Source: a virus (taxonomy: Duplodnaviria; Heunggongvirae; Uroviricota; Caudoviricetes). Taken from it: a stretch of DNA of 64,000 bases. The notes beneath the pieces were generated by a model that saw only the letters and a program-made list of their open reading frames with translations, was not told the DNA's origin and searched no databases. A program made the position numbers and the translations under genes. Numbering within the stretch: position 1 is the first letter of the stretch; every line of letters starts with the position of its first letter. Shown piece after piece: positions 61 to 62,850 of this stretch. Where the stretch lies: the IMG/VR virus record IMGVR_UViG_3300023118_000008, positions 28,188-92,187 of that record; one strand, written 5' to 3'.

Positions 61-92
61 AAAATCGGCGGAAAAAGAAGTTAAAAATAAAG
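61..92 (+). promoter_or_regulatory. Copy of recurrent GC-core intergenic motif (aaaatCGGCGGaaaaagaagttaaaaataaag), about 60 bp upstream of the first gene of the window
   Basis: GC-rich core followed by an A-rich tail, matching more than 30 similarly placed copies in the window. Confidence 0.5.
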
Positions 93-154
93 TTAAAATC
101 CTAGGAAATACCAAATAAAATAAGTAATTTAGAAGTCTAATAATAATCAAGTAA

Positions 155-850
155 ATGACAACAAACAGAAAGCTATCTAAAAAGAAACCTTTAGATGATG
201 ATACTTCAAAAAACTATGAAAAGTTTAAAATTGAACTTACAAAAGAGCAAAAAGGCATAGTTAATTTCCTGAGACAAAATAAAGTGAGTTTGATAACTGG
301 TGAAAGCGGAACCAGCAAAGATACAATATGTTTTTATAGAGGGTTAGATGCCGTGATAAACAAAGAATTTGACAAGCTTATTGTTGTACGTCCGCTGGTA
401 CAGAGTGGTGCCAATTTGGGTTTTCTCAAAGGAGATTTGTCAGAAAAGACAGCAGTTTATGAAGATTTTTATAAATATCATTTAGGAAAGATACTAAATA
501 AAGCAGAGTTAGAAAGAATAAAAAATAAGATTGAATTTGAAACAACTCAATTTTCAAGAGGTAAGAATTGGGAATACTCTTTTATTATAGTTTCTGAAGC
601 TCAGTCATTTAATTTACATGAACTTTTTACTTTAGTAACTAGAGTGTCTGAATCTTCAGTTATTGTTTTTAATGGGGATTACGAATTACAAAATGATATT
701 GGGAATAAATCGGGATATAAGGATTTTATTAATATTATTAAAGGTATTGATGGAATTGATTACGTTAATCTAGGGGACGAGTTTCAAATGAGAAGTCAAC
801 TTATTACTCAGATTAACAGAGCTCATAAAAAGTTTTTAAATGGAAGATAA
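155..850 (+). CDS. phoH: PhoH-like ATPase
   Basis: Degenerate P-loop LITGESGTSKD plus a FSRGKNWEYSFIIVSEAQS...VIVFNGD block resembling the PhoH RGRT...IILDEAQN...VITGD motifs. Confidence 0.7.
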   Translation: MTTNRKLSKKKPLDDDTSKNYEKFKIELTKEQKGIVNFLRQNKVSLITGESGTSKDTICFYRGLDAVINKEFDKLIVVRPLVQSGANLGFLKGDLSEKTAVYEDFYKYHLGKILNKAELERIKNKIEFETTQFSRGKNWEYSFIIVSEAQSFNLHELFTLVTRVSESSVIVFNGDYELQNDIGNKSGYKDFINIIKGIDGIDYVNLGDEFQMRSQLITQINRAHKKFLNGR

Positions 851-1667
851 TAACTGGTATGTTTATAGACATTTAAAACCTAATGGCGAGGTATTTTATA
901 TCGGTATTGGGAGAGCAAAAAACTATAAAAGAGCTAATTCAAAATATGGAAGGAATTCCTATTGGACTAACCTTGTTAATAAATATGGATATCATGCAGA
1001 AATATTAAGTCATAATCTTTCTGTAGACGAAGCTAAAGATTTAGAGGTTTTACTGATTTCTTGGTATAAGAGGATAGACTGCTGTGGTGGCACTTTAGTA
1101 AATCTTACAGATGGTGGCGATGGCTACAATCCTTCGGAAGAAACTCGTTTAAAGAGGAGTGTTGCACAACTGGGGAATAAGAATCACATGTTTGGCAAAA
1201 AAGGAAAAGATAGCCCATCTTTTGGAAAATCTAAACACTCGCATGCTCAAAAACAAAAATGGAGCGAGGAAAGAGCAGGTACTCAGGTTGGAGAAGATAA
1301 TCCTTTCTATGGAAGATTCCACACAGAGGAACAAATAGAAAAGTGGAAGATAGACGAAAGGAGAATTCATAGAGGTGAAGATAATGGAATGTTTGGAAAA
1401 AGTGGTGAGTTAGCACCTTGTTATGGAAGAGTAGGGGAATTACATCCCATGTTTGGTAAAGAAGGCCATTGGAAAGGTAAGAAATTACCAAAGGAAGCTA
1501 TAGAGAATATGAAAAATTGTGGAGGTAAAATAGTTCTAGACATTGAAACAGGGGTTTATTATTTATCTGTAAGGGAGGCTTCTGATTATTGTAGATTAAC
1601 TTATGGACACTTACTAAAAGTTTTTAAAGGGGAATATAAGAATTATACAAGTTTAAGACTTGTTTGA
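840..1667 (+). CDS. GIY-YIG homing endonuclease with NUMOD3-like repeats (I-TevI-like)
   Basis: N-terminal YVYRH...EVFYIGIG...N motif; four tandem NhMFGKkG/NPFYGR repeats resembling NUMOD DNA-binding modules; overlaps the phoH-like stop by 11 bp, typical of a free-standing homing endonuclease. Confidence 0.75.
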   Translation: MEDNNWYVYRHLKPNGEVFYIGIGRAKNYKRANSKYGRNSYWTNLVNKYGYHAEILSHNLSVDEAKDLEVLLISWYKRIDCCGGTLVNLTDGGDGYNPSEETRLKRSVAQLGNKNHMFGKKGKDSPSFGKSKHSHAQKQKWSEERAGTQVGEDNPFYGRFHTEEQIEKWKIDERRIHRGEDNGMFGKSGELAPCYGRVGELHPMFGKEGHWKGKKLPKEAIENMKNCGGKIVLDIETGVYYLSVREASDYCRLTYGHLLKVFKGEYKNYTSLRLV

Positions 1668-2004
1668 TACAGACTTAATAATGACTAAAGAACAAATAAT
1701 CCAATTTCTAAGCGAATTAAAAACTTCTTATCACCTCAACGAAATGGTTTATACGCAAGGAAGCTGTTTCAGGCTATATTCTATTTTAGTTTGTCTCCTA
1801 CCCGAAATTAAGCCTTGGTATTCTCATTTGGAAGGACATTGGATTATAGAATTTGAAGACAGTTTCTATGATATTAATGGGGAGATTTCTAAGACTTATA
1901 TTTTAGATAAACAGTATGAGCTTATTACTGATTCTTTAACTCTTTCTTCCGCGAAAATTCCAACTTATGAAAGACAATGCAGTTCTTATTCAAAGTATTG
2001 TTAA
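1660..2004 (+). CDS. hypothetical protein
   Basis: ORF on the coding strand immediately after the preceding gene. Confidence 0.4.
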   Translation: MFDTDLIMTKEQIIQFLSELKTSYHLNEMVYTQGSCFRLYSILVCLLPEIKPWYSHLEGHWIIEFEDSFYDINGEISKTYILDKQYELITDSLTLSSAKIPTYERQCSSYSKYC

Positions 2005-2255
2005 TCTAAAGTTAACTGATTTGTTTTATTAGAATAAAGGTTGTATATTTGCATAAGAAATAAGTATATTAATAGTATTGTAAGCTAAAGGCTCAACTCA
2101 GAGATAACTGTGCACCAGAGGACAACCATTAAGATAACCACAACTATTAAATGAAGAGATCGAGAGATTATCTTATTTTTATAAACCTATAGGTATCTCC
2201 CGGAGCTCAGGATGTAGATGAAACCAGCATCAATATTTATAGGTTTATTTTAAAT

Positions 2256-2328
2256 GTGGATTGTAGCTGAATGGTAAAGCACCTGATTGTGGTTCAGGCG
2301 ATTGAGGGTTCGACTCCCTCCTTTCCAA
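2256..2328 (+). tRNA. tRNA candidate, anticodon GTG (His), with G at -1; acceptor stem has two T-T mismatches
   Basis: Anticodon arm CCTGA-TTGTGGT-TCAGG, T-arm GAGGG-TTCGACT-CCCTC, D-arm GCT-GAATGGTAA-AGC; read manually, needs tRNAscan. Confidence 0.5.
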
Positions 2329-2343
2329 CTAAAAACAAGAAAA

Positions 2344-2457
2344 ATGACAACGGAACAAAGACTAGAATTATTAAGAATTGCATCAAACTTAAATGGAACA
2401 CACTGTATAGAAGATGTATTAGAAAACTATAAAAAACTTCTACAAACTATTCAATAA
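2344..2457 (+). CDS. small hypothetical protein (37 aa, MTTEQRLELLRIASNLNG...)
   Basis: Short ORF below the track cutoff in an otherwise gene-free gap after the tRNA. Confidence 0.25.
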   Translation: MTTEQRLELLRIASNLNGTHCIEDVLENYKKLLQTIQ

Positions 2458-2630
2458 TGATAAACAAACCAACCCAATCAAGAAGATTTTTAGGTAAGAC
2501 TGAAAACTTCAATTCAAAGCAAGACCAAGCTTTTCACCAAAGAATGTTGAAAGCCTATTTACAAGGAAGGCAGACCTTTAAATTCTGGGGAGAACAATAT
2601 CAAGTAAATCAAAAATTAATTCAAATCTAA
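2457..2630 (+). CDS. small hypothetical protein (57 aa)
   Basis: Short ORF whose ATG overlaps the preceding stop (taATGa). Confidence 0.25.
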   Translation: MINKPTQSRRFLGKTENFNSKQDQAFHQRMLKAYLQGRQTFKFWGEQYQVNQKLIQI

Positions 2631-7408: not shown

Positions 7409-7906
7409 ATGGTAAATAAATATTATTTTCAAGGGGATATAAGTGTTGAAAGCGTAAATAATTTAATAGAAGTTTTAAATGGATTTGAAGGAGCTGTTGA
7501 TTTATGGTTTTCTTCTTGTGGCGGACATCCATCATCTATGAGATTTCTGATAAGTTATTTGAATTCTAGAAAAGACGAGATTAAAATAACTTTGACAGAC
7601 GAAATCTGTTCTGCGGCGACTCTATTACTAATTGATTTTGAAGGAGTTTTGGAATACAACGATTTAGATTTTATCTTGTTTCACATGTTTGACCGTGAAA
7701 GATATCCTCTCAGACAAAGTGGTTCTGTGAGTGATAACAAGATTCAAAAGCAGGATCTAAAGGGAAATATAGAAATGGCTCTAAAATTCCGCGAGAAAAA
7801 TATTCTAACAAAAGAACAGTCTAGAAAATTCTTAAAAGGTAAGGATGTTGTATTATATGAAAAACAAATTAGAAAATTATGGAAAACCTCAGAACAGGAA
7901 ATTTAA
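7409..7906 (+). CDS. ClpP/S14-fold protein (possible Clp protease-like; catalytic residues uncertain)
   Basis: DLWFSSCGGHPSSMRFLISYLNS resembles the ClpP INSPGGSVTAGLAIYDTM region; weak. Confidence 0.3.
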   Translation: MVNKYYFQGDISVESVNNLIEVLNGFEGAVDLWFSSCGGHPSSMRFLISYLNSRKDEIKITLTDEICSAATLLLIDFEGVLEYNDLDFILFHMFDRERYPLRQSGSVSDNKIQKQDLKGNIEMALKFREKNILTKEQSRKFLKGKDVVLYEKQIRKLWKTSEQEI

Positions 7907-8956: not shown

Positions 8957-9334
8957 ATGATAGAAGATTGGAAAAAACTAACAGATAAAATTACCCAAGA
9001 GTGGATTAAGAAGTGTTTTGAAATTTCTGAAGGCGAAGATTTAGATTATTATTGGGTGGCAAATCAAGTAGGAACAGTTTTTGAATTTGCCGATTATTGG
9101 GTTAGCTTCGAAAATGTTTTAGATTGCTACAATTATGATGTATCGAAAGAAAACTTCTTTAATTGGTATGACAAATGCCTTTCTGATTCCTCTTTTCAGC
9201 TGTCTTTGACTAATTTTATATTAAAGCCTAAAGAGTTAAAAGAACAAGAAAGGCTCGGTCTAGAAAGATCTAAAGAAAACTTAAAATTCGCGGAGGAAGA
9301 ATTTAAAAAACTAATTGAGTCTTATGAAAAATAA
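8957..9334 (+). CDS. hypothetical protein
   Basis: ORF on the coding strand. Confidence 0.4.
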   Translation: MIEDWKKLTDKITQEWIKKCFEISEGEDLDYYWVANQVGTVFEFADYWVSFENVLDCYNYDVSKENFFNWYDKCLSDSSFQLSLTNFILKPKELKEQERLGLERSKENLKFAEEEFKKLIESYEK

Positions 9335-9650: not shown

Positions 9651-9915
9651 TAAGAATAGATAACATATTATCCAATTACATTAAATTATAACTAAAATAG
9701 CTAATATATTATACATGACAAAAGAAGATATTATAGGATTAACTTTAGAATCCGCGCGAGAAAAACTTAAAAACAAAGATTTTAGAATTGTCAAAATAAA
9801 TCATAGAAATATGGCAGTAACAGACGATTTTAATTCAGACAGATATAATTTAGAAATAGAAAACAATATAATAGTAAACTGTTATGAAGGTTAATAAACA
9901 ATTAAAATTATCCTA

Positions 9916-11214: not shown

Positions 11215-11527
11215 AAATCTCGAGAAAAGAGAAACTAAAATGAAAATATACTTTAAAGGAGATAGTGGTATAAAACAACCTTTTGATATGGACGGCTTAG
11301 TAATAAAAGAAGGTGACATACTAACAAGGGATTACGGAGATAATGAAAAATATAATTTACGTATAGGAGAAAATGACTCAACTGAACCATTCTATAGTGT
11401 AAAGAAAAATGAAAAAGGAGGATATTTTGCAGAATCAATAAAACCTTATGAATGCTTTTTAGGAGAAGATAAATACTTCTTCTTGCATGATTTTAGGTTT
11501 AAATTCTGTAAAAATGTTTCAGTTTAA
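11195..11527 (+). CDS. hypothetical protein
   Basis: ORF on the coding strand. Confidence 0.35.
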   Translation: MKLIQNKNLEKRETKMKIYFKGDSGIKQPFDMDGLVIKEGDILTRDYGDNEKYNLRIGENDSTEPFYSVKKNEKGGYFAESIKPYECFLGEDKYFFLHDFRFKFCKNVSV

Positions 11528-11861
11528 ATATCGCGGGGAAAAGATGAAAATAAAAGAATTAAGATTAGGAAATCTACTACTAAGAAACAATAGAACAGAA
11601 ACAGTAAATAGGCTAAGCACCACTAGGATAAACAAGAACATAGCTTCGGAATATCAAGGAATAGAGATAACTAAAGACTGGCTTTTAAAATATAACTTCG
11701 TTCTTTTTAGTAGCGATTACTATACCTTAGAAGATATTATATCTTTCAGCAAAGACTTATCAAAGATATTTATACTGACCGATAATACAGTGGAACCAAT
11801 AAAATATATACATGAGCTACAGAATTTGTATTACAGCTTAAAAAGAAAAGAGTTAATTTAA
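11487..11861 (+). CDS. hypothetical protein (probable true start at the internal ATG near 11545, MKIKELRL)
   Basis: ORF on the coding strand. Confidence 0.35.
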   Translation: MILGLNSVKMFQFKYRGEKMKIKELRLGNLLLRNNRTETVNRLSTTRINKNIASEYQGIEITKDWLLKYNFVLFSSDYYTLEDIISFSKDLSKIFILTDNTVEPIKYIHELQNLYYSLKRKELI

Positions 11862-11891
11862 AAAATCGGCGGGGAAGAAAACTAAAAATAA
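11861..11891 (+). promoter_or_regulatory. Recurrent motif copy (aaaaatCGGCGGggaagaaaactaaaaataa) immediately 5' of the ATG at 11892
   Basis: Motif family. Confidence 0.5.
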
Positions 11892-12191
11892 ATGAAATCA
11901 ATATACATAATAACATACTCTAAAGGCCAATACGACGATTATAGAGAAACAGTCTTAGATACTTGCTATACTCAAAGAGAATATGCAATAGAAGGACAAA
12001 AACAGTTTGAAGAAGACTATCTTAAGCCAATAGAGAACCCTTGGGAAGATTTTCAAGAATACTATGAAACAGAGGATATAGTTAAATGGGACGAAGATAA
12101 GTATGAACTCTATGATAAATGGAGAGATGAAACTAACAGGGTATCAAGCTATAACCACTCTTGGATAACGGAGTTGAAATTAGCTCTTTAG
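11892..12191 (+). CDS. hypothetical protein
   Basis: ORF directly preceded by a motif copy. Confidence 0.45.
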   Translation: MKSIYIITYSKGQYDDYRETVLDTCYTQREYAIEGQKQFEEDYLKPIENPWEDFQEYYETEDIVKWDEDKYELYDKWRDETNRVSSYNHSWITELKLAL

Positions 12192-12302
12192 AGACACGAT
12201 AATCTTATAAGTAGTATATTTCTATCAAATTAAATAAAAAGTACCTTAAAACTAATATAAATAGCTAAGGTGATTAATTTACACATATAATACAATCAAT
12301 TT

Positions 12303-12322
12303 TAAATTCGCCGCGAAAAAGA
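12303..12322 (+). promoter_or_regulatory. Recurrent motif copy (aaattCGCCGCGaaaaagaATG)
   Basis: Motif family; the downstream gene's start codon overlaps the motif tail. Confidence 0.45.
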
Positions 12323-12664
12323 ATGAAACAAGAAATAAAAAACCTACTACAAGAGTATAAATTAAAAACAGTAGAAGAATCAGAAGAAGATATAACTTTT
12401 AAGATTAAAAAAATATCAGTGGCACTTCAAATAGAAGAAGACGACTATGCCCAAATATGGATAAGCGGTGTAGAAGGTACAGACTTACCTTGGGAGTATT
12501 ATGACCACACCCTACTTTATGGTGACATAGATGAGATAGAAAGTTTTATAGTGGCTGTAATTGATGGCGAGTACAATTACATAGGAGAGCTTTATAAGAA
12601 TTTAGAAAAACTTCAAGAAAAGTATTCTGAGAATTTTGATAATATGGTAGAGTACTTCATTTAA
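12323..12664 (+). CDS. hypothetical acidic protein
   Basis: ORF directly preceded by a motif copy. Confidence 0.45.
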   Translation: MKQEIKNLLQEYKLKTVEESEEDITFKIKKISVALQIEEDDYAQIWISGVEGTDLPWEYYDHTLLYGDIDEIESFIVAVIDGEYNYIGELYKNLEKLQEKYSENFDNMVEYFI

Positions 12665-12932: not shown

Positions 12933-13183
12933 TATATAATTATTTACGTTTTAAATGGTTTTGTCTAATATAATGTACGTGCATGCGCGTTATACGAAAT
13001 TCTTTTTTAATATCCTATTTTTATTTTAATTATTTTATTCTTTACTTTGTACTGTTGTTAGTCAACAAGGTTCTTTTGAGGTATTGAAATTAATTATAAA
13101 CTTTAACATATTTAGTTATTGTTTATTCGATTAAGTTCCTTATCTTTGTAATGTATTAGTTGAGCAGTTCTTTTTTATCCTTT

Positions 13184-13207
13184 GTTTAGTTTTCTTTCCC
13201 GCCGATT
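13184..13207 (-). promoter_or_regulatory. Recurrent motif copy in reverse orientation (reverse complement aatcggcgggaaagaaaactaaac)
   Basis: Motif family; lies in the gene-free region. Confidence 0.4.
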
Positions 13208-13500
13208 AAAAGGCTTGAAAAATTTAACAAAATAAATTAGGTTATTAGATTTAAGTTGCTTACCTTTACAAAAGAATTATAATACAGTCCTTTGAAATTG
13301 TGTGTAAAAAGTTAACAAGCGTTAAGCCTCCTATTTTAGATAGTTGGGACGTGATTAAGGTTAACAGTCGTATTTATCATTTCTTGCGACTTTAAAGAAT
13401 GATTTGATATTGGTATTAGGTTATTATCTTGCCAATTAAAATAACGAATATAACCCAAATTTTATCGAAAATTAAGGGCAAATTTAAATTTGCTTTTCAT

Positions 13501-13781: not shown

Positions 13782-14054
13782 ATGTACACAATCACAGAAA
13801 CAAAAACAAAGTTAGAGAAAAAAGCGGGAACAAAAAACGCTTATAAAGAAATTACTAAAGAAGTTAAAGAGGTAACAGAAGAGCAACACCGACTAACTAC
13901 AAATGACGATACTGTTAAATGGTTCAGACGTTTAGGAGGTTCTGAAACTGTTACACGTGGCTATACTTATGCGGGTTATGTGGTTGTTAAGCTTGTTTCA
14001 ACTTCGCCCGATAAAGAAAGTAAAACCATAAGAGAATACAAATTTAAAAAGTAA
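13782..14054 (+). CDS. hypothetical protein
   Basis: ORF on the coding strand. Confidence 0.45.
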   Translation: MYTITETKTKLEKKAGTKNAYKEITKEVKEVTEEQHRLTTNDDTVKWFRRLGGSETVTRGYTYAGYVVVKLVSTSPDKESKTIREYKFKK

Positions 14055-14250: not shown

Positions 14251-14466
14251 ATGACAAAGCAACAATTTGACCAGGAATTTAAAATGAATGATTTGCACGA
14301 AATAGCAAAACAGTATGAAAGAGATGGTATACCAGACAGACCAGCAAGACGTGAAGCCTACAACAATAAAGTAGATCATTACCAAAGAGAGGGTTTAATT
14401 ACGGAAGACGATGCAAACGAATGGTGTATTACTGATTCATTAGAAACAACTTTATATTGGTTATAA
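14251..14466 (+). CDS. hypothetical protein
   Basis: Small ORF on the coding strand. Confidence 0.45.
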   Translation: MTKQQFDQEFKMNDLHEIAKQYERDGIPDRPARREAYNNKVDHYQREGLITEDDANEWCITDSLETTLYWL

Positions 14467-14493
14467 ATTTCGCGGAAAAAGAATTAAAAACAG
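14466..14493 (+). promoter_or_regulatory. Recurrent motif copy (aatttCGCGGaaaaagaattaaaaacag), 7 bp before the ATG at 14501
   Basis: Near-consensus copy of the motif family. Confidence 0.55.
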
Positions 14494-14500
14494 TTTAAAA

Positions 14501-14891: not shown

Positions 14892-15091
14892 TGGCAAAGA
14901 AAATTTCTAATGAAAGTTACGAGGTTCTAATATCCTCGGGACATTGTGTACCTAGATTAGGTCAAGGATTAGATAACATTGTTCCCTTTAAAGTCGGTGG
15001 TGAATATAAAGTAACGGGAGAGAGTAAGCAATTAGAAGTTTGGGTAAGATGTACACAAAACTGTCCTTACCACTTAAGACTGATTGAATAA
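14891..15091 (+). CDS. hypothetical protein
   Basis: ORF whose start abuts the preceding stop. Confidence 0.45.
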   Translation: MAKKISNESYEVLISSGHCVPRLGQGLDNIVPFKVGGEYKVTGESKQLEVWVRCTQNCPYHLRLIE

Positions 15092-15118
15092 ACCGCCGAA
15101 AAGAAAAATTAAAAACAA
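15091..15118 (+). promoter_or_regulatory. Recurrent motif copy (aaCCGCCGaaaagaaaaattaaaaacaa)
   Basis: Motif family, directly 5' of the ATG at 15119. Confidence 0.5.
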
Positions 15119-15262
15119 ATGACACTAAAGCAAACAGTATCAGAAATAAAAGGCTATGAAGTAACAGAAGGACAGGCAAGACTATTTGCATCCGAACAGT
15201 ATGGAGTTCTAGCCACCTACATAAGAAACAAGCTATTAGAAAATTTAAAAATACCGAAGTAA
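15119..15262 (+). CDS. small hypothetical protein (47 aa)
   Basis: Short ORF directly downstream of a motif copy. Confidence 0.35.
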   Translation: MTLKQTVSEIKGYEVTEGQARLFASEQYGVLATYIRNKLLENLKIPK

Positions 15263-15679: not shown

Positions 15680-15824
15680 AAGGCTATGGAAAAGACTTAT
15701 GAATTATTAAAGTTATTAGTAGTAAGAGGTTGTTTTAAAACAGATAGAGATTATAATATCGCTTTAAAAACTTTTGAAGAGATTACGGGAGAATCTTATG
15801 AAGAATTAGTAGATTCGGAGGTAT

Positions 15825-15862
15825 AAAAATCGGCGGGAGAAAAACTTTTAAACAAAAACAGC
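15825..15862 (+). promoter_or_regulatory. Recurrent motif copy (aaaaatCGGCGGgagaaaaacttttaaacaaaaacagc)
   Basis: Motif family, directly 5' of the ATG at 15863. Confidence 0.5.
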
Positions 15863-16192
15863 ATGAACACAACAGTAGAAAATAATAAGCTAATTGCTGA
15901 ATTTATGGAAGACGTAAACAAGCTATTACATAATAACATTTTCATATCACCGTATCAATATCATTCTGATTGGAATGTTTTACTAGAGGTAGTAGAGAAG
16001 ATTGAAAGCTTTGAAGACGAAAACAGACAAGCAAAGTATAATTTTCAGATAGAACAAAGCTTTGTTTCAATAATTGACAATAATACAAGCGACTTTATTT
16101 TCGATGGAGATGCAGACACCAAAAAAGAAGCCGTTTACAATGCAGTAGTAGAGTTTATTAAGTTCTATAATTCGGCGCAAAAAGAAAACTAA
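15863..16192 (+). CDS. hypothetical protein
   Basis: ORF directly downstream of a motif copy. Confidence 0.45.
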   Translation: MNTTVENNKLIAEFMEDVNKLLHNNIFISPYQYHSDWNVLLEVVEKIESFEDENRQAKYNFQIEQSFVSIIDNNTSDFIFDGDADTKKEAVYNAVVEFIKFYNSAQKEN

Positions 16193-16213
16193 ACAAAGTA
16201 AATAAAAACAGCT
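16171..16213 (+). promoter_or_regulatory. Recurrent motif copy (ttCGGCGCaaaaagaaaactaaacaaag...) overlapping the 3' end of the upstream gene
   Basis: Motif family. Confidence 0.5.
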
Positions 16214-17100: not shown

Positions 17101-17307
17101 ATGAAACAAGGACTTATAAAAGACTATCTATACAAAGAATTATGTATGGACTTTTCGGATAAAGATATAGAACAAATAGAGGTAGTGAATACAGAGGTAA
17201 GGTTTATTATTAGATACTTGGATGGTAGTGTTAGAAGAGATTCTATACAGTTGTTATACTTGTTAGAGTTTATGTATGACTTGACTGTATCTTCTTTTGA
17301 TTATTAA
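17101..17307 (+). CDS. hypothetical protein
   Basis: Small ORF on the coding strand. Confidence 0.4.
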   Translation: MKQGLIKDYLYKELCMDFSDKDIEQIEVVNTEVRFIIRYLDGSVRRDSIQLLYLLEFMYDLTVSSFDY

Positions 17308-17509
17308 CTTTTTCGCGCGGAATTTAGTACTATATGTATATTAATTTAGCAAAGATATATATAGGGTTGTATAAAAAGGACATAAGTAAATAAAATACCC
17401 AATAAACACATTTAAAAACTTGTATTATTATGACAGACAGTATTATATTGATTACAACTCTAAGGGAGAATTAGATCTTATTAAGGTTAGGAAAGAATGT
17501 TATTGTTAA

Positions 17510-17889: not shown

Positions 17890-17962
17890 ATCTTTCTTTT
17901 TAACTCTTTTTTGCCGAAATTTAAAAATAATCAGGCTTTTAGCCTTGTAGTAAAAAGACATT

Positions 17963-18175
17963 ATGAAATTTAAAAATACTCAACTAAGGAACGATTTAGA
18001 AAAGCTGTCAGGTTACGATGATTATTGCTATACAGACATTACTACAGACTTTGTAGAAGGTTCAGGATTTGTATTAGACATTAAAGACAGTTCTTATTTC
18101 TATGAGAATATAGAAGACAGGGATTTTGATGATAGATTGATAATGGGAGTTTTGAAAGATAAATTCTTGTTTTAA
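17963..18175 (+). CDS. hypothetical protein
   Basis: ORF preceded by a variant motif (tttgccgaaatttaaaaataa). Confidence 0.45.
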   Translation: MKFKNTQLRNDLEKLSGYDDYCYTDITTDFVEGSGFVLDIKDSSYFYENIEDRDFDDRLIMGVLKDKFLF

Positions 18176-18177
18176 TT

Positions 18178-18212
18178 GTTTTTCCGCGAAATTTAACCTT
18201 TAAACAAACAAC
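18178..18212 (+). promoter_or_regulatory. Variant-B motif (ttttCCGCGaaatttaacctttaaacaaacaac)
   Basis: Palindromic TTTCGCGAAA core followed by an A-rich tail. Confidence 0.4.
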
Positions 18213-18507: not shown

Positions 18508-18524
18508 CTTAAATCAAAAACTTA

Positions 18525-23359: not shown

Positions 23360-23443
23360 AACTTTATTGCTTTAAATTAGTTTGAAAAGTACAAAAAATT
23401 AAAAGAATCCAAAACAAATAATATTAACCCAATACCTTAACTT

Positions 23444-23481
23444 TACTTCGCGGGAAAAAGAACTAGAAACAGTTCAAAAAT
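23444..23481 (+). promoter_or_regulatory. Recurrent motif copy (cttCGCGGGaaaaagaactagaaacagttcaaaaatc) inside the transposon, abutting the right terminal repeat and facing outward
   Basis: Motif family; the same 100-bp unit occurs inverted at 39057-39160. Confidence 0.5.
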
Positions 23482-39010: not shown

Positions 39011-39056
39011 ATTAAAAATCACTCTAATCTAATATATAGTTACCAAAATAAATTTA

Positions 39057-39332
39057 GGTAAGTATACCCACTTTACACAAGATTTTAAAACTGTTTTTTT
39101 AGTTCTTTTTCCCGCGAAATAAAGTTAGGGTATTGGGTTAATATTATTTTCTGTTCATAACTTGCCTCTATTGAAAACCAATTTATAATAGTCTTTGACT
39201 ATATTTGTTATCTAATCAAAACTTTAAAAATTATGAGTGCAAGCCTAGAAAAAGCTATTGAGCTGTTAACATCGGAAATTTATTTAATGAGGTGGCTTAA
39301 TTTAATGTCGGTGTAAAGTGGGTATACTTACC
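39057..39332. mobile_element. 276-bp MITE-like non-autonomous derivative of the 18483-23506 transposon; 25-bp terminal repeats (left perfect, right 22 of 25) and 8-bp target-site duplication TAAATTTA
   Basis: Left repeat 39057-39081 is identical to the transposon's left repeat. Right repeat at 39308-39332. Direct repeat taaattta at 39049-39056 and 39333-39340. The first about 100 bp equal the reverse complement of 23405-23506. Confidence 0.8.
39089..39124 (-). promoter_or_regulatory. Recurrent motif copy inside the MITE, facing outward (leftward)
   Basis: Reverse complement ctttatttcgcgggaaaaagaactaaaaaaacagtt. Confidence 0.45.
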
Positions 39333-46825: not shown

Positions 46826-46834
46826 TATTTTTTA

Positions 46835-47095
46835 TTATTTCGCGGGAAAAAGTTTACAATCAAAAAGAGAAAACAAATCTCTCATTTGTTCAAAGGTTAA
46901 ATTATTAGGAAAGTTAAAAAGCATATCTAATTCTTGTTTCATAGCTTCGTTATCTTGAAGCCTTAGCCAAAAACAGTCTCCGTCAAATTCTAGCTTAAAT
47001 ATCTCAGGATTACTTTTGACTAAAATTAGTTTTCCTGTGAAAGTATTTTTGTTAAAGCGGTCTGATAGAATACGCCATTGTTCGGTTGAAAACAT
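46835..47095 (-). CDS. hypothetical protein (its C-terminus is encoded by the reverse complement of a plus-orientation motif copy)
   Basis: ORF on the minus strand. Confidence 0.4.
   Translation of the reverse strand: MFSTEQWRILSDRFNKNTFTGKLILVKSNPEIFKLEFDGDCFWLRLQDNEAMKQELDMLFNFPNNLTFEQMRDLFSLFDCKLFPAK
46848..46878 (+). promoter_or_regulatory. Recurrent motif copy in plus orientation inside the minus-strand gene block
   Basis: atttCGCGGGaaaaagtttacaatcaaaaag. Confidence 0.45.
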
Positions 47096-48494: not shown

Positions 48495-48736
48495 AATTTT
48501 GATTTTAAAGTATCTCCTATTTTTAAATTTTCAGCATCGAATGGAGGAACTAAAACTTCTATAATAGTATCTTTGTTTTTTAGCATTAGAGCTGTTATGC
48601 CTGAACTCCACTTTACAGGCTCTTCAATAAGTACATACCCTTTTCCTTGATACTTTTCTATTGGTTTTGGTTTTTCAAATTTGCAGGATGCTAAAATTGC
48701 GCAAAAAAGAATTAAAAACAGTTTTTTCATTTGCAA
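48491..48736 (-). CDS. small lipoprotein
   Basis: Signal peptide plus lipobox LFCAILASC. Confidence 0.45.
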   Translation of the reverse strand: MQMKKLFLILFCAILASCKFEKPKPIEKYQGKGYVLIEEPVKWSSGITALMLKNKDTIIEVLVPPFDAENLKIGDTLKSKL

Positions 48737-49870: not shown

Positions 49871-49879
49871 AATTTCTTT

Positions 49880-49908
49880 AATTTCGGCGGAAAAAGACTA
49901 AAAATACG
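49880..49908 (+). promoter_or_regulatory. Recurrent motif copy (aatttCGGCGGaaaaagactaaaaatacg) in plus orientation between minus-strand genes
   Basis: Near-consensus motif copy. Confidence 0.45.
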
Positions 49909-50031
49909 AAGTTTCTAGTCTAAATCCTGATTTCTTCTACAAAGATATACAATTAGTTTTAACTGCAAATTTTATTTAACAAAAGATTAGGTTTCGTAGT
50001 TATATAGACGTAGATGAGGAATCAGTTATAC

Positions 50032-52897: not shown

Positions 52898-53117
52898 TTA
52901 TCTAATATTGTCTTCCTCTTGGAAGAGTTCTTTGATTCTGTTTATGTTCATTTATTTGTTTTTAACTGTTTTTTGAGCCGATTTCCATTCATTTAACATA
53001 TCTTTATCAGAATATCCAAAGTATTTTTCACAGTTTTCTTGAGTATCTTCTTCTCTGAACCATTTTGCAAAGTCTATTAAATCTTGTTCGTTAAATTCTT
53101 TCATATTTAGTCTTATT

Positions 53118-53312
53118 TTAAATTTTCTTCCCGCAAATATTGCAAATCTCAGCTTCTTCTACGGAACCAATCCTCCAAGAATAGTTTCCTATGTGGGTTT
53201 CCTCGTGTTTGCAGATTTCTCTCAGCTGTTCTAACCTTTCTTGTGAATTTTTTATTGTTTTATAAAGGTTTTCACATTCTTCTTTTATTTTCATTGTTTT
53301 AATATTCGTCAA
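53118..53312 (-). CDS. small zinc-ribbon protein
   Basis: C..H...CNICGKKI. Confidence 0.35.
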   Translation of the reverse strand: MTNIKTMKIKEECENLYKTIKNSQERLEQLREICKHEETHIGNYSWRIGSVEEAEICNICGKKI

Positions 53313-54147: not shown

Positions 54148-54747
54148 CTAGGACAATATGTCGAGGTTCTCTTTTAAGAAGTTCTTTCTTAAAATTAATT
54201 CGTAGTAATCTATTGTCTCTGTTTTACTTTGATAGTGTCTTTTCCAAGTTTGGGGAGCCTCTTTTCTACACTGTTCGACTCTTTCTTCCGCCGATTTTAA
54301 TTTATCAGTATTGAAATGGTAATAAAGAAACGCCTCCCAGTAATGATGTTGTTCGGGTGCGATAAAAACAATAGCAAACTGCAATCCAAAGAAAACAAAG
54401 CTAAACACAGGAGCATATTCAAATCTGTAGTCAGTGTTTGACCATTTTGTCTTCCATCCAACATCTCTAAGATCAGTTCCTATTTTCTTTGATCGCGGAA
54501 ATTTATATTTAAGGTAACTTTCATATAATTCCTCAAACGAACGTTCTGTGCGCTTATAACTCCCCTCTTTAGATTTATGCTCCTTGATCCTTTCTATTTC
54601 CCTTAAAGCTTCTTCTTTAGCTTTTTTAGGAGTTGCTTTTTTCCATACTCTTGGTGTGAAATAGGGCACGCCTATCTTAACTCCACCAAAGTGGAACTTC
54701 CATTTCAAAGGTTTGAAAGGAGAGAAAAATGTTTTTGTAAATATCAT
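54148..54747 (-). CDS. hypothetical protein (contains a sense-oriented motif copy at 54281-54300)
   Basis: ORF on the minus strand. Confidence 0.45.
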   Translation of the reverse strand: MIFTKTFFSPFKPLKWKFHFGGVKIGVPYFTPRVWKKATPKKAKEEALREIERIKEHKSKEGSYKRTERSFEELYESYLKYKFPRSKKIGTDLRDVGWKTKWSNTDYRFEYAPVFSFVFFGLQFAIVFIAPEQHHYWEAFLYYHFNTDKLKSAEERVEQCRKEAPQTWKRHYQSKTETIDYYELILRKNFLKENLDILS

Positions 54748-55185: not shown

Positions 55186-55624
55186 CTTTTATGTATTTAA
55201 CTGCATCACCTAAGGCATAAAACAGTTGTTCTCTTATTCCTAAATCCTTATGGTATTCTGATATCCAAACATTGTTGTGCATTACTCTTGGAGTAGCGTC
55301 AACAATTATATCTAACTCTGTATCACTCATAAATTCTAAAACTACTTCAAAAAGCCAATCAAAGGAGTTATAAAATCTTAATTCATTGTGTGAACGGCAT
55401 ACATATTTACCTAGAGTATTATCATCTAAAATAATCCAATGATTTTTTCTAACCATAGAAGCTTCTATAATTTTAGGTAAAGCTCTTTTCTGAGTCTTAT
55501 ACCATCCTAATTTTAAATCTTTTTCGCCCGAATTAAAGCCTATATATCTCCAACCTAAATATTCAGCTAGTAATTTTGATGTTTCTTTTATGTCTTTCAT
55601 ATTTCTATTCCTTTTTCGTGCCAA
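55163..55624 (-). CDS. hypothetical protein
   Basis: ORF on the minus strand. Confidence 0.45.
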   Translation of the reverse strand: MARKRNRNMKDIKETSKLLAEYLGWRYIGFNSGEKDLKLGWYKTQKRALPKIIEASMVRKNHWIILDDNTLGKYVCRSHNELRFYNSFDWLFEVVLEFMSDTELDIIVDATPRVMHNNVWISEYHKDLGIREQLFYALGDAVKYIKDGKKVSL

Positions 55625-56217
55625 GCTTGTTCGACGTACTCTTGATGTTCTAAATAAAATTGATATAATGGTGAATCATTTAGATTATAATGTCTGGCAA
55701 AATTATCTTTAGGTTTCCAACAAATATTATCAGCGAGGTAACTAATTACCCCCATCCTATTCTCTGCCATAAATTCTTGCAAGCTTTGACCTGAGTTTTT
55801 ATCGTAAACATTAGCCAAGTAAATACCTAAAAGTATAGCTAGTTTATTATGAGTGAATCCTGTCTGATCTGAGAAGAATTGAATTCTACGTTTTGTCTCG
55901 GTCTTATTCTTGACAATTCCTCCTTCCTTATCTTTGTAGGTTTTTATCAACCACTCTGCTATGACTTCTGTTGATTCCGAAATTTCATCCGACTTCTCTA
56001 AATCTCTTAAAAACTCTGTACCTTTTTTATCAATTCTTAAATTACCGTTTTTGATTCGCTTTAGGTATTTTAAATCTAAGAGTTTCTGGCTCGAACTTAA
56101 GTTACAATATTCTTCTATATTCTCTTGGTCTTGCTGTTTTACGGCGAGAATAAAAAATAAATCTTCTATCTTAAATTCTTTTAGGAACTTATCTATGATT
56201 TTAAAGTTGATGTACAT
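55597..56217 (-). CDS. hypothetical protein
   Basis: ORF on the minus strand. Confidence 0.45.
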   Translation of the reverse strand: MYINFKIIDKFLKEFKIEDLFFILAVKQQDQENIEEYCNLSSSQKLLDLKYLKRIKNGNLRIDKKGTEFLRDLEKSDEISESTEVIAEWLIKTYKDKEGGIVKNKTETKRRIQFFSDQTGFTHNKLAILLGIYLANVYDKNSGQSLQEFMAENRMGVISYLADNICWKPKDNFARHYNLNDSPLYQFYLEHQEYVEQAWHEKGIEI

Positions 56218-61506: not shown

Positions 61507-61521
61507 TTTTATAATTAAGTT

Positions 61522-61550
61522 TTTTGGCGCGGAAAAAGAATTAAAAACGG
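61522..61550 (+). promoter_or_regulatory. Recurrent motif copy (tttttGGCGCGGaaaaagaattaaaaacgg) in plus orientation between minus-strand genes
   Basis: Near-consensus motif copy. Confidence 0.45.
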
Positions 61551-61888
61551 TTCTTATTCCACAAAATTATATAATCCCTACCTAACCCTTTACGGTAATG
61601 CATAATCAAAATCTCACTCTCCTCAATCCATTCAATGTCGGGCTTATAGTAGTTATAAGCAATGAACAAGAGGATTAGTATTATTAGTGTCATAATTTCA
61701 AAGCTTTATCTAAACTGATTAAAAAATTACCCTCTGGTACATAGCAAGTATTTCCTCTGAAAGTGTCCCACATCCAATCTTGATACTTAGAGTTGTATTC
61801 TTTCATTACTTCTTTGAACTGCTCTTTTGTTTTTAGCTGTATGTATTTTACCATCTTGACACCTCTCCTCCTAATGAGTTATCTTTTG

Positions 61889-61917
61889 TTTTTCGCGGGA
61901 AAAAGAATGTAAAACAG
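61889..61917 (+). promoter_or_regulatory. Recurrent motif copy (tttttCGCGGGaaaaagaatgtaaaacag) in plus orientation
   Basis: Near-consensus motif copy. Confidence 0.45.
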
Positions 61918-62062
61918 AGAAAAGAAACTGAAAATAAATAATCAGTAAAACCAAACCCAAAAGGCAAAGCCCAATCGTAAATAGACCAATTAATTTCAAA
62001 ACCGTTTCTAACTCTATAAAAGCCGTTTAAGATGTTTAAATGTTTTTTACGTGATCCCATTT

Positions 62063-62374
62063 TTATTTGTGTCTAAAATTAAACTGTTTTGTATAGTCCC
62101 ATTGTTCTTCTAAATCCCTACCGAAATGTTCTTTTCTGAGGTGTGGTTTAATTTTATTAAGTTCTTTTTCTGTTAAGGGGACTAATTTTCCTTCAATAAA
62201 TAATTCTAAAGCCCCATAAGAGCCACCATAAAGAAACTTGGTTTTTTCATCTCCATCACTTACCAAGACTGTCCAAGTGAAATAGTTGCTAAAGCAAACA
62301 ACTCTGCCTTTTTGTACCATTGTCTTCCGATAAATTCCCATTTCAAAACTCTCTTCTGCTCTAAAAAATCTCAT
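62063..62374 (-). CDS. hypothetical protein
   Basis: ORF on the minus strand. Confidence 0.45.
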   Translation of the reverse strand: MRFFRAEESFEMGIYRKTMVQKGRVVCFSNYFTWTVLVSDGDEKTKFLYGGSYGALELFIEGKLVPLTEKELNKIKPHLRKEHFGRDLEEQWDYTKQFNFRHK

Positions 62375-62673
62375 ATCACTGTTTCTAATTGTTCAACTTC
62401 CGTTTCTACTTCTTTCTCGCTCTCTTTTAATGCTCTGAACCTCCAAGAAGCAAAAGCAGGTTCCATAGTTTTATTAACCACCTTAAAATACTTTAAATCA
62501 TTTCTAACTTCCTCTAAAAGAATGCCTAAAACAAAATCGAAATCGTGTAAGGCTCTGATTGTATATTTCTTATCCTTTTTGATCCAATTTGGCATGTCTT
62601 TTTCAATTTCGTCTTTTGTGTGCGTTTGCATAGATGAGTCTATACATACGATTGTTTGACCTATTTCGAACAT
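62371..62673 (-). CDS. hypothetical protein
   Basis: ORF on the minus strand. Confidence 0.45.
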   Translation of the reverse strand: MFEIGQTIVCIDSSMQTHTKDEIEKDMPNWIKKDKKYTIRALHDFDFVLGILLEEVRNDLKYFKVVNKTMEPAFASWRFRALKESEKEVETEVEQLETVI

Positions 62674-62822
62674 TTTGCTAAAGCTTTTTTAGTTATTAAA
62701 ATTTGCTCTTTTAATATGTTCTTGGTTTCATCTGATATATAGCTAACCCCAATTCGACTTTTATCTAGCTGAATCTGCATTAGTATTAGTTGGTTATCCA
62801 GTATTAATTTCTCCATTTCTTT

Positions 62823-62850
62823 AATTTTCGCCGAAAAAGATTAAAAACAA
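62823..62850 (+). promoter_or_regulatory. Recurrent motif copy (attttCGCCGaaaaagattaaaaacaac) in plus orientation
   Basis: Motif family. Confidence 0.45.

Follow-up and report, generated by a model that had tools for sequence, protein, structure and literature searches.

A lineage-specific GC-core motif at gene junctions of an AT-rich Flavobacterium-type phage is a candidate control-type site and not a simple one-way promoter

An AT-rich phage of Flavobacterium type carries a signal of about 30 bases, built around a short core of G and C only, in about 45 copies across the window (the whole 64,000-nucleotide stretch of DNA that was analysed). Our analysis shows that this GC-core motif is a real, non-random element under selection. 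We conclude that it is a lineage-specific, putative control-type site and not a simple one-way promoter.

Results

Scanning with a 36-nt weight matrix gave 45 matches of at least 18 bits in the window, 28 on the plus and 17 on the minus strand, and 22 of at least 24 bits. For cross-validation the window was split at 20 kb: the matrix trained on copies below 20 kb found 14 matches that reach 18 bits between 20 and 64 kb (0.10 expected, maximum 2, in 100 third-order Markov simulations), and the reverse split found 13 against 0.03 expected. The consensus TCGSSGAAAAAGAATTAAAAACA with up to three mismatches matched 5 times, against 0.00 in 100 dinucleotide shuffles, and the top over-represented G/C-containing 10-mers of the window are words of the motif, such as GCGGAAAAAG. 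A preliminary description of this DNA had reported the motif; it is present at every position given there, and the observation is confirmed (13-14 matches versus 0.03-0.1 expected).

Each copy consists of AAWTT, a G/C-only block of 4-7 nt (mostly 5-7 nt) whose sequence varies, and AAAAAGAATTAAAAACAG. The T at position -1 of the block is 92% conserved and an A follows the block directly in 98% of copies. Beside the block lies an A-rich arm of 18-20 bp, and the motif holds about 25 bp of contiguous asymmetric information, nearly all of it 3′ of the block; conservation was seen neither at -35/-33 nor anywhere upstream of -6. The motif as a whole is not dyad-symmetric (the median score of the copies is 24.5 forward and -6.9 on the reverse strand); the partial symmetry suggested earlier is confined to the boundary T-[CG...G]-A. 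Complementary cores (CGGCGG and CCGCCG) share one arm orientation, and the supposed separate "variant B" dissolves into the motif itself: at 17309, 18178 and 36246 the motif simply lies on the opposite strand, and the copy at 30913 is forward but weak. RNAs transcribed from the two orientations are unrelated, the flanks do not covary across copies, and folding of the copies is inconsistent (z = +1.1 to -2.6) with no conserved structure; the motif must therefore act as DNA.

The copies are given below with strand, score and setting, together with two host-type promoters; class A copies point with the gene and class B copies against it.

58..93, plus, 29.6 bits; within the preceding gene, at its 3′ end (stop 116-118); shares the direction of PhoH, start 155
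1926..1961, minus, 24.5 bits; antisense within gene 1681-2004 (plus)
7780..7815, plus, 20.7 bits; 3′ part of 7409-7906; start 7879 lies 86 nt on
9280..9315, plus, 24.2 bits; 3′ end of 8957-9334; start 9324 lies 31 nt on
9745..9780, plus, 32.3 bits; sense, 37 nt into gene 9715-9894
11524..11559, plus, 24.1 bits; junction 3′ of 11240-11527
11860..11895, plus, 24.0 bits; class A, start 11892
12302..12337, plus, 29.0 bits; class A; A-rich arm contains ATG 12323
13119-13148, plus; host-type promoter directed into copy 13176..13211 from the arm side
13176..13211, minus, 30.5 bits; ORF-free region
13997..14032, plus, 20.3 bits; 3′ end of 13782-14054; upstream of start 14060
14462..14497, plus, 30.6 bits; class A, perfect match to the consensus; start 14501
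15086..15121, plus, 22.7 bits; class A, start 15119
15824..15859, plus, 26.8 bits; class A, start 15863
16165..16200, plus, 25.9 bits; last codons of 15863-16192; class A, start 16214
17292..17327, minus, 22.0 bits; the former variant B copy 17309; reverse to its plus-strand neighbours
17890..17925, minus, 27.2 bits; class B; directly 3′ of the 17596-17889 stop; next start 17963
18162..18197, minus, 29.0 bits; the former variant B copy 18178; class B; overlaps the 17963-18175 stop; next start 18230
23441..23476, plus, 29.5 bits; in a 100-bp inverted repeat; 3′ of it a 28-bp GTGTAAAGTGGGTATACTTACC element and a tRNA-like element
24832..24867, plus, 21.9 bits; sense within 24679-24951
27088..27123, plus, 21.5 bits; 3′ end of 26771-27148; upstream of start 27130
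28341..28376, plus, 22.8 bits; 3′ end of 27976-28404; upstream of start 28392
33267..33302, plus, 20.4 bits; 3′ end of 33100-33330
33823..33858, plus, 24.5 bits; sense within 33545-34021
36986..37021, plus, 23.6 bits; sense within 36923-37123; upstream of a DnaB-like gene
38296..38331, minus, 26.4 bits; class B; DnaB-like stop 13 nt before; start 38348 lies 30 nt on
38979..39014, plus, 25.6 bits; last codons of 38670-39005; faces 39089-39124
39089..39124, minus, 34.1 bits, top score of the window; intergenic; pairs with 23441-23476 in the inverted repeat
46833..46868, plus, 21.3 bits; class B for 46592-46825 (minus)
48690..48725, plus, 27.8 bits; antisense across the first codons of 48491-48730 (minus)
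49877..49912, plus, 26.8 bits; class B; between promoter 49968-49940 (minus) and ATG 49870 (minus)
49940..49968, minus; canonical Bacteroidetes-type promoter, TTG-N18-TATCTTTG; 100% conserved in L001; directed into the reversed motif
52952..52987, minus, 22.9 bits; class A; directly 3′ a conserved 17-codon mini-ORF, then the A1-like gene
53108..53143, minus, 20.7 bits; class A for 52952-53104 (minus)
54265..54300, minus, 20.5 bits; sense within 54148-54747 (minus); described earlier as reverse copy 54281
55503..55538, minus, 23.6 bits; sense within 55163-55600 (minus)
56120..56155, minus, 20.4 bits; sense within 55597-56217 (minus); kept in L001
58364..58399, minus, 23.2 bits; within 58332-58490 (minus); class A for 58105-58350 (minus); kept in L001
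59210..59245, minus, 22.1 bits; sense within 58480-59397 (minus)
61519..61554, plus, 24.5 bits; class B; between -7 box 61569-61562 (minus) and ATG 61506 (minus)
61886..61921, plus, 32.3 bits; antisense within 61848-62060 (minus); class B for 61690-61854 (minus)
62820..62855, plus, 20.6 bits; class B; between -7 box 62879-62872 (minus) and ATG 62816 (minus)

Forty related metagenomic loci carry the motif. Orthologous copies are 86% identical and their flanks 72%, and all 11 of the copies that can be compared in L001 keep position and orientation. The closest cultured relative, Cellulophaga phage phi17:2 (145 kb), has 0 copies; about 155 kb of other AT-rich phages gave two matches of at least 18 bits and 316 kb of bacterial DNA one, and the sampled host-genus DNA lacks the motif.

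The link to gene starts noted previously is non-random: of 79 cores, 44 sit no more than 70 nt ahead of a start codon, where 14.8 are expected and 1000 randomisations reached 26 at most. Copies concentrate among small ORFan genes, with one copy per small gene at 11.8-16.8 kb, and those near starts always leave a gap of about 5-12 nt before the ATG. Their orientation, clustered in blocks along the window, is close to evenly divided. In the first data set, 30 copies within 100 nt upstream of a start were co-oriented and 21 anti-oriented, and in a larger set of 101 start-proximal copies 53 share the direction of the gene and 48 oppose it. Where only four reverse copies had been reported, one of which (54281) is sense relative to its minus-strand gene, the copy points away in 11 of the 29 window genes that have one within 100 nt upstream; among these are eight plus-strand intergenic copies in the minus-strand gene block at 40-64 kb. 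No ORFs were found downstream of anti-oriented copies. Intergenic-only copies show a mild reverse excess (23 with the gene, 40 against; p = 0.043) and promoter-proximal ones a stronger excess (16 versus 4), both from phylogenetically non-independent counts, which suggests that in certain contexts orientation may matter. Otherwise orientation follows coding constraint and not function: sense predominates among copies embedded in coding sequence (71 versus 21), as an A-rich arm would lead one to expect, and unconstrained intergenic copies go both ways.

A directional promoter upstream of the genes it drives is not supported, as roughly every second start-proximal copy points away from the adjacent gene. 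In crAss-like phages, by contrast, intergenic matches to the phi14:2-type middle/late promoter motif are sense in all but four cases (10.1101/2020.03.07.982082). The earlier proposal of a phage-specific promoter class is supported as to lineage, given the 0 copies in phi17:2, and not as to direction, given 53 copies with and 48 against the gene. Nor does the copy near position 61 head a gene train, as had been supposed: it lies inside the 3′ end of a preceding gene, which stops at 118, and further genes on the same strand extend the train beyond the window start. The suggestion of two transcriptional regimes, which was built on that copy, is not supported.

Canonical Bacteroidetes-type promoters (TTG-N17-22-TAnnTTTG) and hairpin terminators are both present, separate from the motif, which, as described before, is not a Shine-Dalgarno site and has no match to the -33/-7 consensus. 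Sixteen host-type promoters point into a reversed copy, and none was found at co-oriented copies. At least eight intergenic regions run from host promoter through a 5-41-nt gap to reversed motif and ATG; in L001 the promoter and motif of such regions are perfectly conserved and the sequence separating the two varies. The 129 small ORFs contained no match to a DNA-binding or sigma family.

Discussion

We tentatively read the motif as a double-stranded DNA site through which a lineage-specific factor would govern transcription at gene junctions, in an operator- or roadblock-like way. The factor, specific to this phage sub-lineage and probably a phage-encoded DNA-binding protein, would recognise the G/C block together with the 18-20-bp arm, and the site would be retained at gene junctions to control entry into the downstream gene in either orientation. 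Just 3′ of a host-type promoter, binding would block promoter escape, as at an operator; in a site that fills the spacer between two co-transcribed genes, it would block elongation, as at a roadblock. We infer both the protein binding and repression as its outcome from copies that are orientation-free yet start-proximal, that in at least eight regions stand in a promoter-reversed motif-ATG order, and that outconserve their flanks. Monomer-bound phage operators and stoperators are likewise contiguous and asymmetric (PMC9283540), like the roughly 25 bp of information here. However, L5-type stoperators, which are multi-copy asymmetric operators, are strictly oriented with transcription (PMC9283540), and the occurrence of GC-core copies both ways counts against our reading. 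A composition-only block of variable length (4-7 nt) would also be unusual inside a protein site and is more reminiscent of a promoter spacer or discriminator. Short intergenic spacers and tolerant protein termini could in part account for the link to start codons.

Somewhat less probably, the motif serves as a phage-specific promoter in both directions. Read forward, nAAWTT would be a -10-like element, the 4-7-nt block a discriminator and the next A the +1, a spacing that fits the sigma-70 family (T at -1, block of 5-7 nt, A after it) and would give co-oriented copies leaders of about 25-30 nt. Co-oriented copies, which lack a host-type promoter where 16 reversed ones face one, would activate downstream genes, and anti-oriented copies would fire against upstream transcription, shutting off any facing host-type early promoter 20-45 nt away by occlusion or collision; in a variant, the promoter would be truly bidirectional and centred on the block. 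The regular provision of one copy per small gene at 11.8-16.8 kb resembles the early promoters of large lytic phages, forward copy 23441 precedes the tRNA-like element, and copies 13176 and 12901 precede a stretch that is free of ORFs and A-rich on its minus strand. There is also precedent for two-way activity in the 29-bp intergenic repeats of halovirus HF2, proven promoters with about half their activity in reverse (PMC8707807). Yet 48 of 101 start-proximal copies would be antisense, with no ORFs downstream of anti-oriented ones, whereas mapped phage promoter sets are co-oriented almost throughout (10.1101/2020.03.07.982082). The information lies mostly in what would be transcribed, +1 to +20, with nothing conserved upstream of -6; TAnnTTTG/TTTG has no match in the motif; and the analysis turned up neither a sigma factor nor an RNA polymerase. 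In the relatives, the 2102-aa virion protein lacks a DxDxD motif.

We consider it unlikely that the motif serves for recognition, nicking or another DNA transaction, either as the target of one of the many phage HNH or GIY-YIG endonucleases, for instance an HNH enzyme with an AP2-like, G/C-favouring tail, or as a site used by proteins of replication, topology or packaging; it would then survive only where coding constraint is weak and hence end up at gene junctions. The GCC box is the target of plant AP2 domains, and a cyanobacterial protein of the HNH-AP2 type binds poly(dG)-poly(dC). The motif acts at the DNA level, is asymmetric and occurs in either orientation, in a lineage rich in homing endonucleases. 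A family of HNH endonucleases with AP2-like tails has 12 copies across the motif-positive loci and none in motif-free phi17:2, and each of four GIY-YIG-like genes has a reversed copy 122-268 nt downstream. However, the AP2 assignment scores 29.9 bits against a Pfam cut-off of 33.3, the AP2-HNH genes lie at no constant distance from motif copies, the core sequence varies, and homing targets are normally single, where this motif occurs about 100 times per genome. In phage T5 too, the major-nick consensus (R/GCGCRGG) forms a G/C block within an AT-rich genome (PMC3517423). The phage analysed here encodes a T5 A1-like protein, but known phage nick sites lie on a single strand (PMC3517423), as against 28 plus and 17 minus copies.

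Improbable, too, is a selfish or recombination-prone repeat, REP/MITE-like or akin to the PeSL cassette linkers of T4, that spread through intergenic DNA within one sub-lineage and has no direct regulatory role. A high-copy, intergenic, two-way element of one lineage, missing from phi17:2 and concentrated among small ORFans, would suit this, block-wise orientation is compatible with local duplication, and some flanks are shared beyond the motif (49869-49904 with 62812-62847; the 100-bp inverted repeat at 23.4 and 39.1 kb). Against it, the copies show no hairpin, terminal inverted repeats or target duplications, they are kept in L001 better than their flanks and are maintained within coding sequence, and junctions that bear the motif show no enrichment of mosaic-block edges (Fisher p = 0.74). 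Bacteroidetes leaders are A-rich and lack a Shine-Dalgarno sequence, and all start-proximal copies lie in a leader or intercistronic spacer with about 5-12 nt free before the ATG; an RNA element, whose G/C block, flanked by unstructured A/U-rich leader, tunes translation initiation or marks an RNase cleavage site in intercistronic RNA, is nonetheless very doubtful, as the transcribed arm is A-rich or U-rich by orientation and yet both are conserved, complementary cores keep the same arm orientation, structure is not conserved, and copies also occur antisense within genes and in ORF-free DNA.

The virtual absence of the motif from host-genus DNA, other AT-rich phages and phi17:2 points to an accessory, lineage-specific system. 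If the motif is a double-stranded DNA site of the kind that we favour, the outcome would be the co-ordinated switching, most simply the shut-off, of about a quarter of the phage's genes, mostly small ORFans.

Results

A high-copy motif confined to one phage sub-lineage

Every coordinate at which the preliminary description had placed a copy carries the motif, and the motif is strongly enriched over background (13-14 matches, where 0.03-0.10 are expected). For cross-validation the window was divided in two: a 36-nt weight matrix built from copies in one part found 14 matches of at least 18 bits in the other, where third-order Markov simulations predict 0.10, and the reverse split gave 13 against 0.03. 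The consensus with up to 3 mismatches occurs 5 times, compared with 0.00 in dinucleotide shuffles, and of all G/C-containing 10-mers in the window, words from the motif are the most strongly over-represented. The window holds 45 matches of at least 18 bits, and the copy density of about 0.7 per kb corresponds to roughly 100 per 144-kb genome.

Motif matches of at least 18 bits in control DNA
Eight other AT-rich phage loci with an A1 homologue (T5-type DNA transfer protein): ~155 kb, 2 matches
Bacterial DNA, about half of it Flavobacterium (~150 kb): 316 kb, 1 match
Complete genome of Cellulophaga phage phi17:2: 145 kb, 0 matches

An artefact of the composition of AT-rich phage DNA is excluded by the Markov and dinucleotide nulls, and again by the eight other AT-rich loci and the whole phi17:2 genome, while the single match in bacterial DNA excludes a general host motif. 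The phage sets also bear out specificity with respect to other phages, and a search for over-represented words in the 145 kb of phi17:2 found no analogous repeat. Among uncultured relatives, pattern scans recovered the motif at 40 loci, which total 396 kb and together hold 168 sites that score 20 bits or more after removal of redundancy. Judged by these sequences, the motif is confined to one sub-lineage of Flavobacterium-type phages.

The phage and its probable host

The parent contig is 144,324 nt long, and the window, AT-rich phage DNA with a G+C content of 31.8%, spans the contig ends. Between 1 and 40 kb the genes lie on the plus strand, interrupted by a minus-strand block at 18.6-21.1 kb; those at 40-64 kb are on the minus strand. 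Recognisable products include PhoH, a GroEL-like chaperonin, exonucleases, a DnaB-like helicase, polynucleotide kinase, RNA ligase, a T5 A1-like "DNA transfer" protein and several homing endonucleases. Near-identical DNA was not found in the phage collection; among cultured phages, the closest are phi17:2 and phi4:1 of Cellulophaga (145 kb), to whose counterparts a 2102-aa virion protein of a related contig is 30% identical. This protein (phrog_37651) also occurs in the epsilon crAss-like phage crAssE-Sib, at 23% identity. It lacks the DxDxD polymerase motif and has no sequence match in the Protein Data Bank, and on these grounds it was rejected as a possible crAss-type RNA polymerase. The phage looks lytic, and its host is probably Flavobacterium, since the transposase of an insertion sequence in the window is 80-83% identical to Flavobacterium copies.

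Genes and RNA elements of the window and related loci
Window 5251-6789: GroEL-like chaperonin, 512 aa, ~31-33% identity to Vibrio and Bacteroides phage chaperonins
Window 21556-22527: IS1595 transposase, with its own TATATTTG promoter
Locus L064, 4784-5965, just past the window's right end: IS605 OrfB/TnpB (Cas12f-like) gene, a second insertion sequence
Related loci L067, 353-6661, and L106, 7572-13880: the 2102-aa virion protein common to phi17:2 and phi4:1
Window 31478-31512 (+): DUF805b RNA (Rfam, 40 bits, above the gathering threshold), between genes 30962-31480 and 31532-32503
Window 30830-30910: leader upstream of gene 30962, also structured-looking

Anatomy of the motif

In a first set of 83 non-redundant sites, on which all anatomy figures are based, the core is a 4-7-nt run of G and C only and is variable in sequence (CGCGG, CGGCGG(G), CGCGGG, CCGCG, CGCCG and others); complementary cores such as CGGCGG and CCGCCG are found with the arm pointing the same way. 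Conservation is weak in the 5′ flank, AAWTT, although 92% of sites carry T at the position adjoining the core. Strong conservation resides in the 3′ flank of ~20 nt, AAAAA-R-AA-WTW-AAAA-M-A-R, ideally AAAAAGAATTAAAAACAG(TT), whose first base is A in 98% of sites. Contiguous asymmetric information extends over ~25 bp and the dyad-like part is limited to the boundary T-[CG...G]-A, so that overall the motif is asymmetric: its median score is 24.5 bits when read forward but -6.9 when the opposite strand is scored. The latter value excludes a palindrome or dimer site, and the copies singled out earlier as a palindromic variant B turn out to be the same motif on the opposite strand. A hairpin or structured RNA is excluded by three negative results: no covariation between the flanks in the 83-site set, no consistent RNA fold at motif copies (fold z-scores of +1.1 to -2.6, no shared structure) and no Rfam match at any copy. 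The motif has no G/C-rich hairpin followed by a U tract and is therefore not an intrinsic (Rho-independent) terminator; canonical hairpin terminators stand elsewhere in the window, for example at 18524, 19897 and 23142.

Copies mark gene junctions in either orientation

Intergenic DNA makes up just 7-16% of most loci, yet 33 of 83 motif sites are intergenic. Of 79 cores, 44 have a called start codon no more than 70 nt downstream, against 14.8 at random positions (maximum 26 in 1000 trials), and 29 of the 157 window genes have a copy within 100 nt upstream. At operon-internal junctions the motif takes up the whole spacer, often with the upstream stop codon in its edge and with the next ATG 5-12 nt beyond it, and many copies sit in the last codons of the upstream gene. 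The motif is dense among small ORFan genes, as in the 11.8-18.2 kb region with one per gene, and sparse in the 10 kb of DNA-metabolism genes immediately upstream of the window. One conserved 17-codon mini-ORF (MNINRIKELFQEEDNIR; window 52898-52951, minus strand), present also in L001, an 81%-identity relative of the window, lies between the motif copy at 52952-52987 and the start of the A1-like gene, and ends at the A1 ATG.

Orientation of motif copies relative to the adjacent or enclosing gene
Copies up to 100 nt ahead of a start (first data set): 30 with the gene, 21 against
Copies up to 100 nt ahead of a start (larger data set): 53 with, 48 against
Intergenic start-proximal copies only: 23 with, 40 against
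Inside coding sequence: 71 sense, 21 antisense

The earlier count of only four reverse copies is not sustained, since reversed and forward copies are equally common; the excess of sense copies within coding sequence is the pattern expected of an A-rich arm on a purine-rich coding strand. Among copies of at least 18 bits in the window, 28 are on the plus strand and 17 on the minus strand, and the minus-strand gene block at 40-64 kb has eight intergenic copies on the plus strand. Locus L035 has all its genes on one strand, and there a series of forward copies gives way to a series of reversed ones. Orientation and position are kept at all 11 sites that can be compared between the window and L001, and these orthologous copies are 86% identical, versus 72% for their flanks.

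Host-type promoters read into reversed copies

Bacteroidetes promoters (TTG-N17-22-TAnnTTTG) were located in the window at 2044, 7329, 13141, 16496, 30821, 33438, 39200, 43437, 49947 and 51265, among other positions. Counted without correction for phylogenetic non-independence, 16 of the promoters within 170 nt of a motif fire into it from the side of the A-rich arm, 4 fire in from the opposite side and 11 point away; the order in the 16 is promoter, a gap of 5-41 nt, reversed motif and ATG. In footprint alignments with L001, promoter and motif are perfectly conserved and the spacer between them varies in sequence and length. Three independent cases of a promoter followed by a reversed motif adjoin GIY-YIG-like homing-endonuclease genes on the 3′ side.

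The motif shares intergenic position and AT-richness with Bacteroidetes sigma-A promoters (TTTG at -33, TAnnTTTG at -7), and both are found upstream of window genes, but the canonical promoters are separate from it in the window and it has neither of their boxes. Its left flank is AAWTT followed mostly by C, TAnnTTTG occurs in neither reading, and positions -25 to -6 are without conservation, so there is no -33 TTTG/TTG box 17-22 nt upstream of a -7 element. A host-type promoter is thereby excluded. The promoter interpretation of the preliminary description stands insofar as a non-random element does lie near gene starts, and fails insofar as copies are not co-oriented with the genes. Directional phage promoter classes (T4 early, middle and late, T7-type, phi14:2 middle) are co-oriented with genes, and the motif is not; for the phi14:2-type middle/late motif in crAss-like genomes, all but four intergenic matches are sense (10.1101/2020.03.07.982082).

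Other repeats and putative control regions

Two further repeats and two other elements were observed in the window. A 100-bp inverted repeat of 90-94% identity, with arms 15.5 kb apart, brackets the replication-gene block, and each arm consists of a motif copy and a second conserved element. A second repeat family, AATCTTGTGTAAAGTGGGTATACTTACC (28-34 bp, 91-100% identity), occurs in both orientations like the main motif; two of its copies are directed into plus-strand genes at their 3′ ends, and the other two stand immediately upstream of gene starts. In the tRNA-like element a 7-bp acceptor stem is combined with a GGTTCGATTCC T-arm; it gave no ARAGORN call, and its Rfam mascRNA-menRNA match (18 bits) is below threshold. 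The ORF-free region could be a non-coding RNA, a control region or an origin.

Repeats and ORF-free elements of the window
23416-23516 (+) and 39047-39149 (-): arms of the 100-bp inverted repeat
18483-18510 (reverse complement), 23479-23506 (+), 39051-39084 (reverse complement), 39311-39342 (+): AATCTTGTGTAAAGTGGGTATACTTACC copies
23520-23582 (+): small tRNA-like element, downstream of the motif copy at 23441
12840-13630: ORF-free, ~800 nt, AT skew reversed so that the minus strand is A-rich; two minus-oriented motif copies and one plus-oriented; listed with a host-type promoter (13141), a minus-strand promoter-like site (12780) and a hairpin terminator (13501)

Discussion

Among known systems, the stoperator network of cluster A mycobacteriophages comes closest. 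Stoperators, recognized by the L5 gp71-type repressor, are like the motif asymmetric, lineage-specific and present in dozens of copies, and they too lie near promoters and in very short spaces between co-transcribed genes (PMC9283540). They have a fixed 13-bp sequence, and their orientation strictly follows transcription, reversal abolishing function (PMC9283540). The motif likewise occurs many times in promoters and short intergenic spaces, but it is ~27-30 bp long with a G/C block of variable length, and its orientation is near random (53 vs 48), with a bias in promoter-proximal copies only (16 vs 4). Because stoperators are strictly co-oriented with transcription, the motif system would be a variant rather than a member of this group. 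The 29-bp class II repeats of halovirus HF2 also resemble it as ~30-bp intergenic elements with AT motifs parted by G/C; their position is kept in related viruses and they have promoter activity in both directions (PMC8707807). HF2 differs in being an archaeal virus with TATA/BRE promoters and two class II copies, whose native orientation follows genes. In cluster K mycobacteriophages, the start-associated sequences share the direction of the gene, sit only a few bases away from its start codon and contain the ribosome-binding site. Unlike them, the motif stays 7-60 nt from the ATG and is orientation-free, although both are short, conserved and found upstream of many starts within one lineage (PMC3203893). 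We found no described equivalent in the literature on Flavobacterium or Cellulophaga phages. The motif is placed as a variant within phage intergenic regulatory repeats, its near-random orientation being unusual and its regulatory role putative.

Our tentative proposal is that the motif may be bound by a lineage-specific factor, which would control RNA polymerase where genes adjoin; we infer both the binding protein and the sign of its effect. Since the two orientations would give unrelated RNAs and yet both are conserved, the motif acts as double-stranded DNA, and the same conservation of both orientations contradicts an RNA-level element, which is highly improbable. Asymmetric information of ~25 bp, placement between promoter and ATG or between cistrons, and restriction to one sub-lineage suggest an operator or roadblock. 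Where the motif follows a promoter, the bound factor would act as an operator, and between co-transcribed genes it would act as a roadblock; roughly one gene in four would thereby be switched in concert. Among window ORFs we found no DNA-binding or sigma family and no cognate sequence-specific repressor, most of the 144-kb genome lying outside the window. Phylogenetic profiling against motif-negative loci was uninformative because those phages have only the A1 gene in common.

A bolder reading, which we consider a long shot, is a two-way switch in which one phage factor, a new RNA-polymerase specificity or a polar roadblock, would read the asymmetric 30-bp signal genome-wide, with orientation setting the effect. 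Co-oriented copies would turn genes on, and reversed copies, facing host-type early promoters or sitting at the 3′ ends of upstream genes, would silence theirs by occlusion, collision or antisense RNA. Motif direction alone could then encode the temporal programme of ~100 junctions.

Somewhat doubtful, though it merits consideration, is a promoter used in both directions. The arrangement nAAWTT, 4-7-nt G/C block, A matches the -10/discriminator/+1 geometry of the sigma-70 family, forward copies also precede the tRNA-like element and the ORF-free region with its A-rich minus strand, and the HF2 intergenic repeats are a precedent for two-way activity (PMC8707807). Half of the copies would be antisense, however, nothing is conserved upstream, and neither the window ORFs nor the 2102-aa virion protein of relatives provided a polymerase or sigma factor.

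It is improbable that the motif is an endonuclease, nick or other DNA-transaction site, although the lineage carries an unusually heavy load of homing endonucleases (NUMOD3, GIY-YIG/SegE-like, and HNH with an AP2-like tail).

Homing-endonuclease genes
Window: 840-1667, 28700-29151, 50032-51138, 62908-63951
Related locus L066: 678-1889, 8639-9067

The copy at 28.7-29.15 kb is probably a pseudogene, its frames split at an A-run. HNH endonucleases with an AP2-like tail are numerous in the lineage and absent from motif-free phi17:2, and profiling against phi17:2 picked out only this multi-copy family, but the AP2 match is below Pfam's cut-off. The nick sites of T5-like, phiKMV-like and tf-like phages have, like the motif, a short, G/C-rich, asymmetric consensus that stands in an AT-richer genome and is present in many copies, and those of T5 are G/C blocks as well (PMC3517423). 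The window phage has a T5 A1-like protein and many HNH endonucleases. Those nick sites have a defined core and occupy one strand only (PMC3517423), whereas the motif is found on both strands (28 plus, 17 minus) with a variable core.

A selfish repeat or recombination linker has little to recommend it. A lineage-specific burst and block-wise orientation would fit a selfish repeat, but the motif lacks a hairpin or terminal repeat, shows no presence/absence polymorphism and is better conserved than its flanks; its asymmetry, the missing hairpin and the 11 of 11 orthologous copies in L001 speak against a REP- or MITE-like mobile repeat. Mosaic block edges fall at gene junctions with or without the motif alike (Fisher p = 0.74), which speaks against a PeSL-like recombination linker.

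The initial observation is thus confirmed and extended, and the promoter interpretation is only partly supported. To our knowledge, regulatory signals of Bacteroidota phages are almost unknown beyond a few crAss-like models. The motif is an easily recognised, very high-copy signal that marks gene junctions in widespread uncultured Flavobacterium-type phages, relatives of phi17:2 and phi4:1; its weight matrix marks the lineage sharply and helps to call where small ORFan genes start, and phi17:2, which is without the motif, offers a natural comparison system. Near-random orientation sets the motif apart from every well-characterised set of phage promoters, terminators or stoperators, and its reader would therefore be a new kind of global regulator or represent a new promoter logic.
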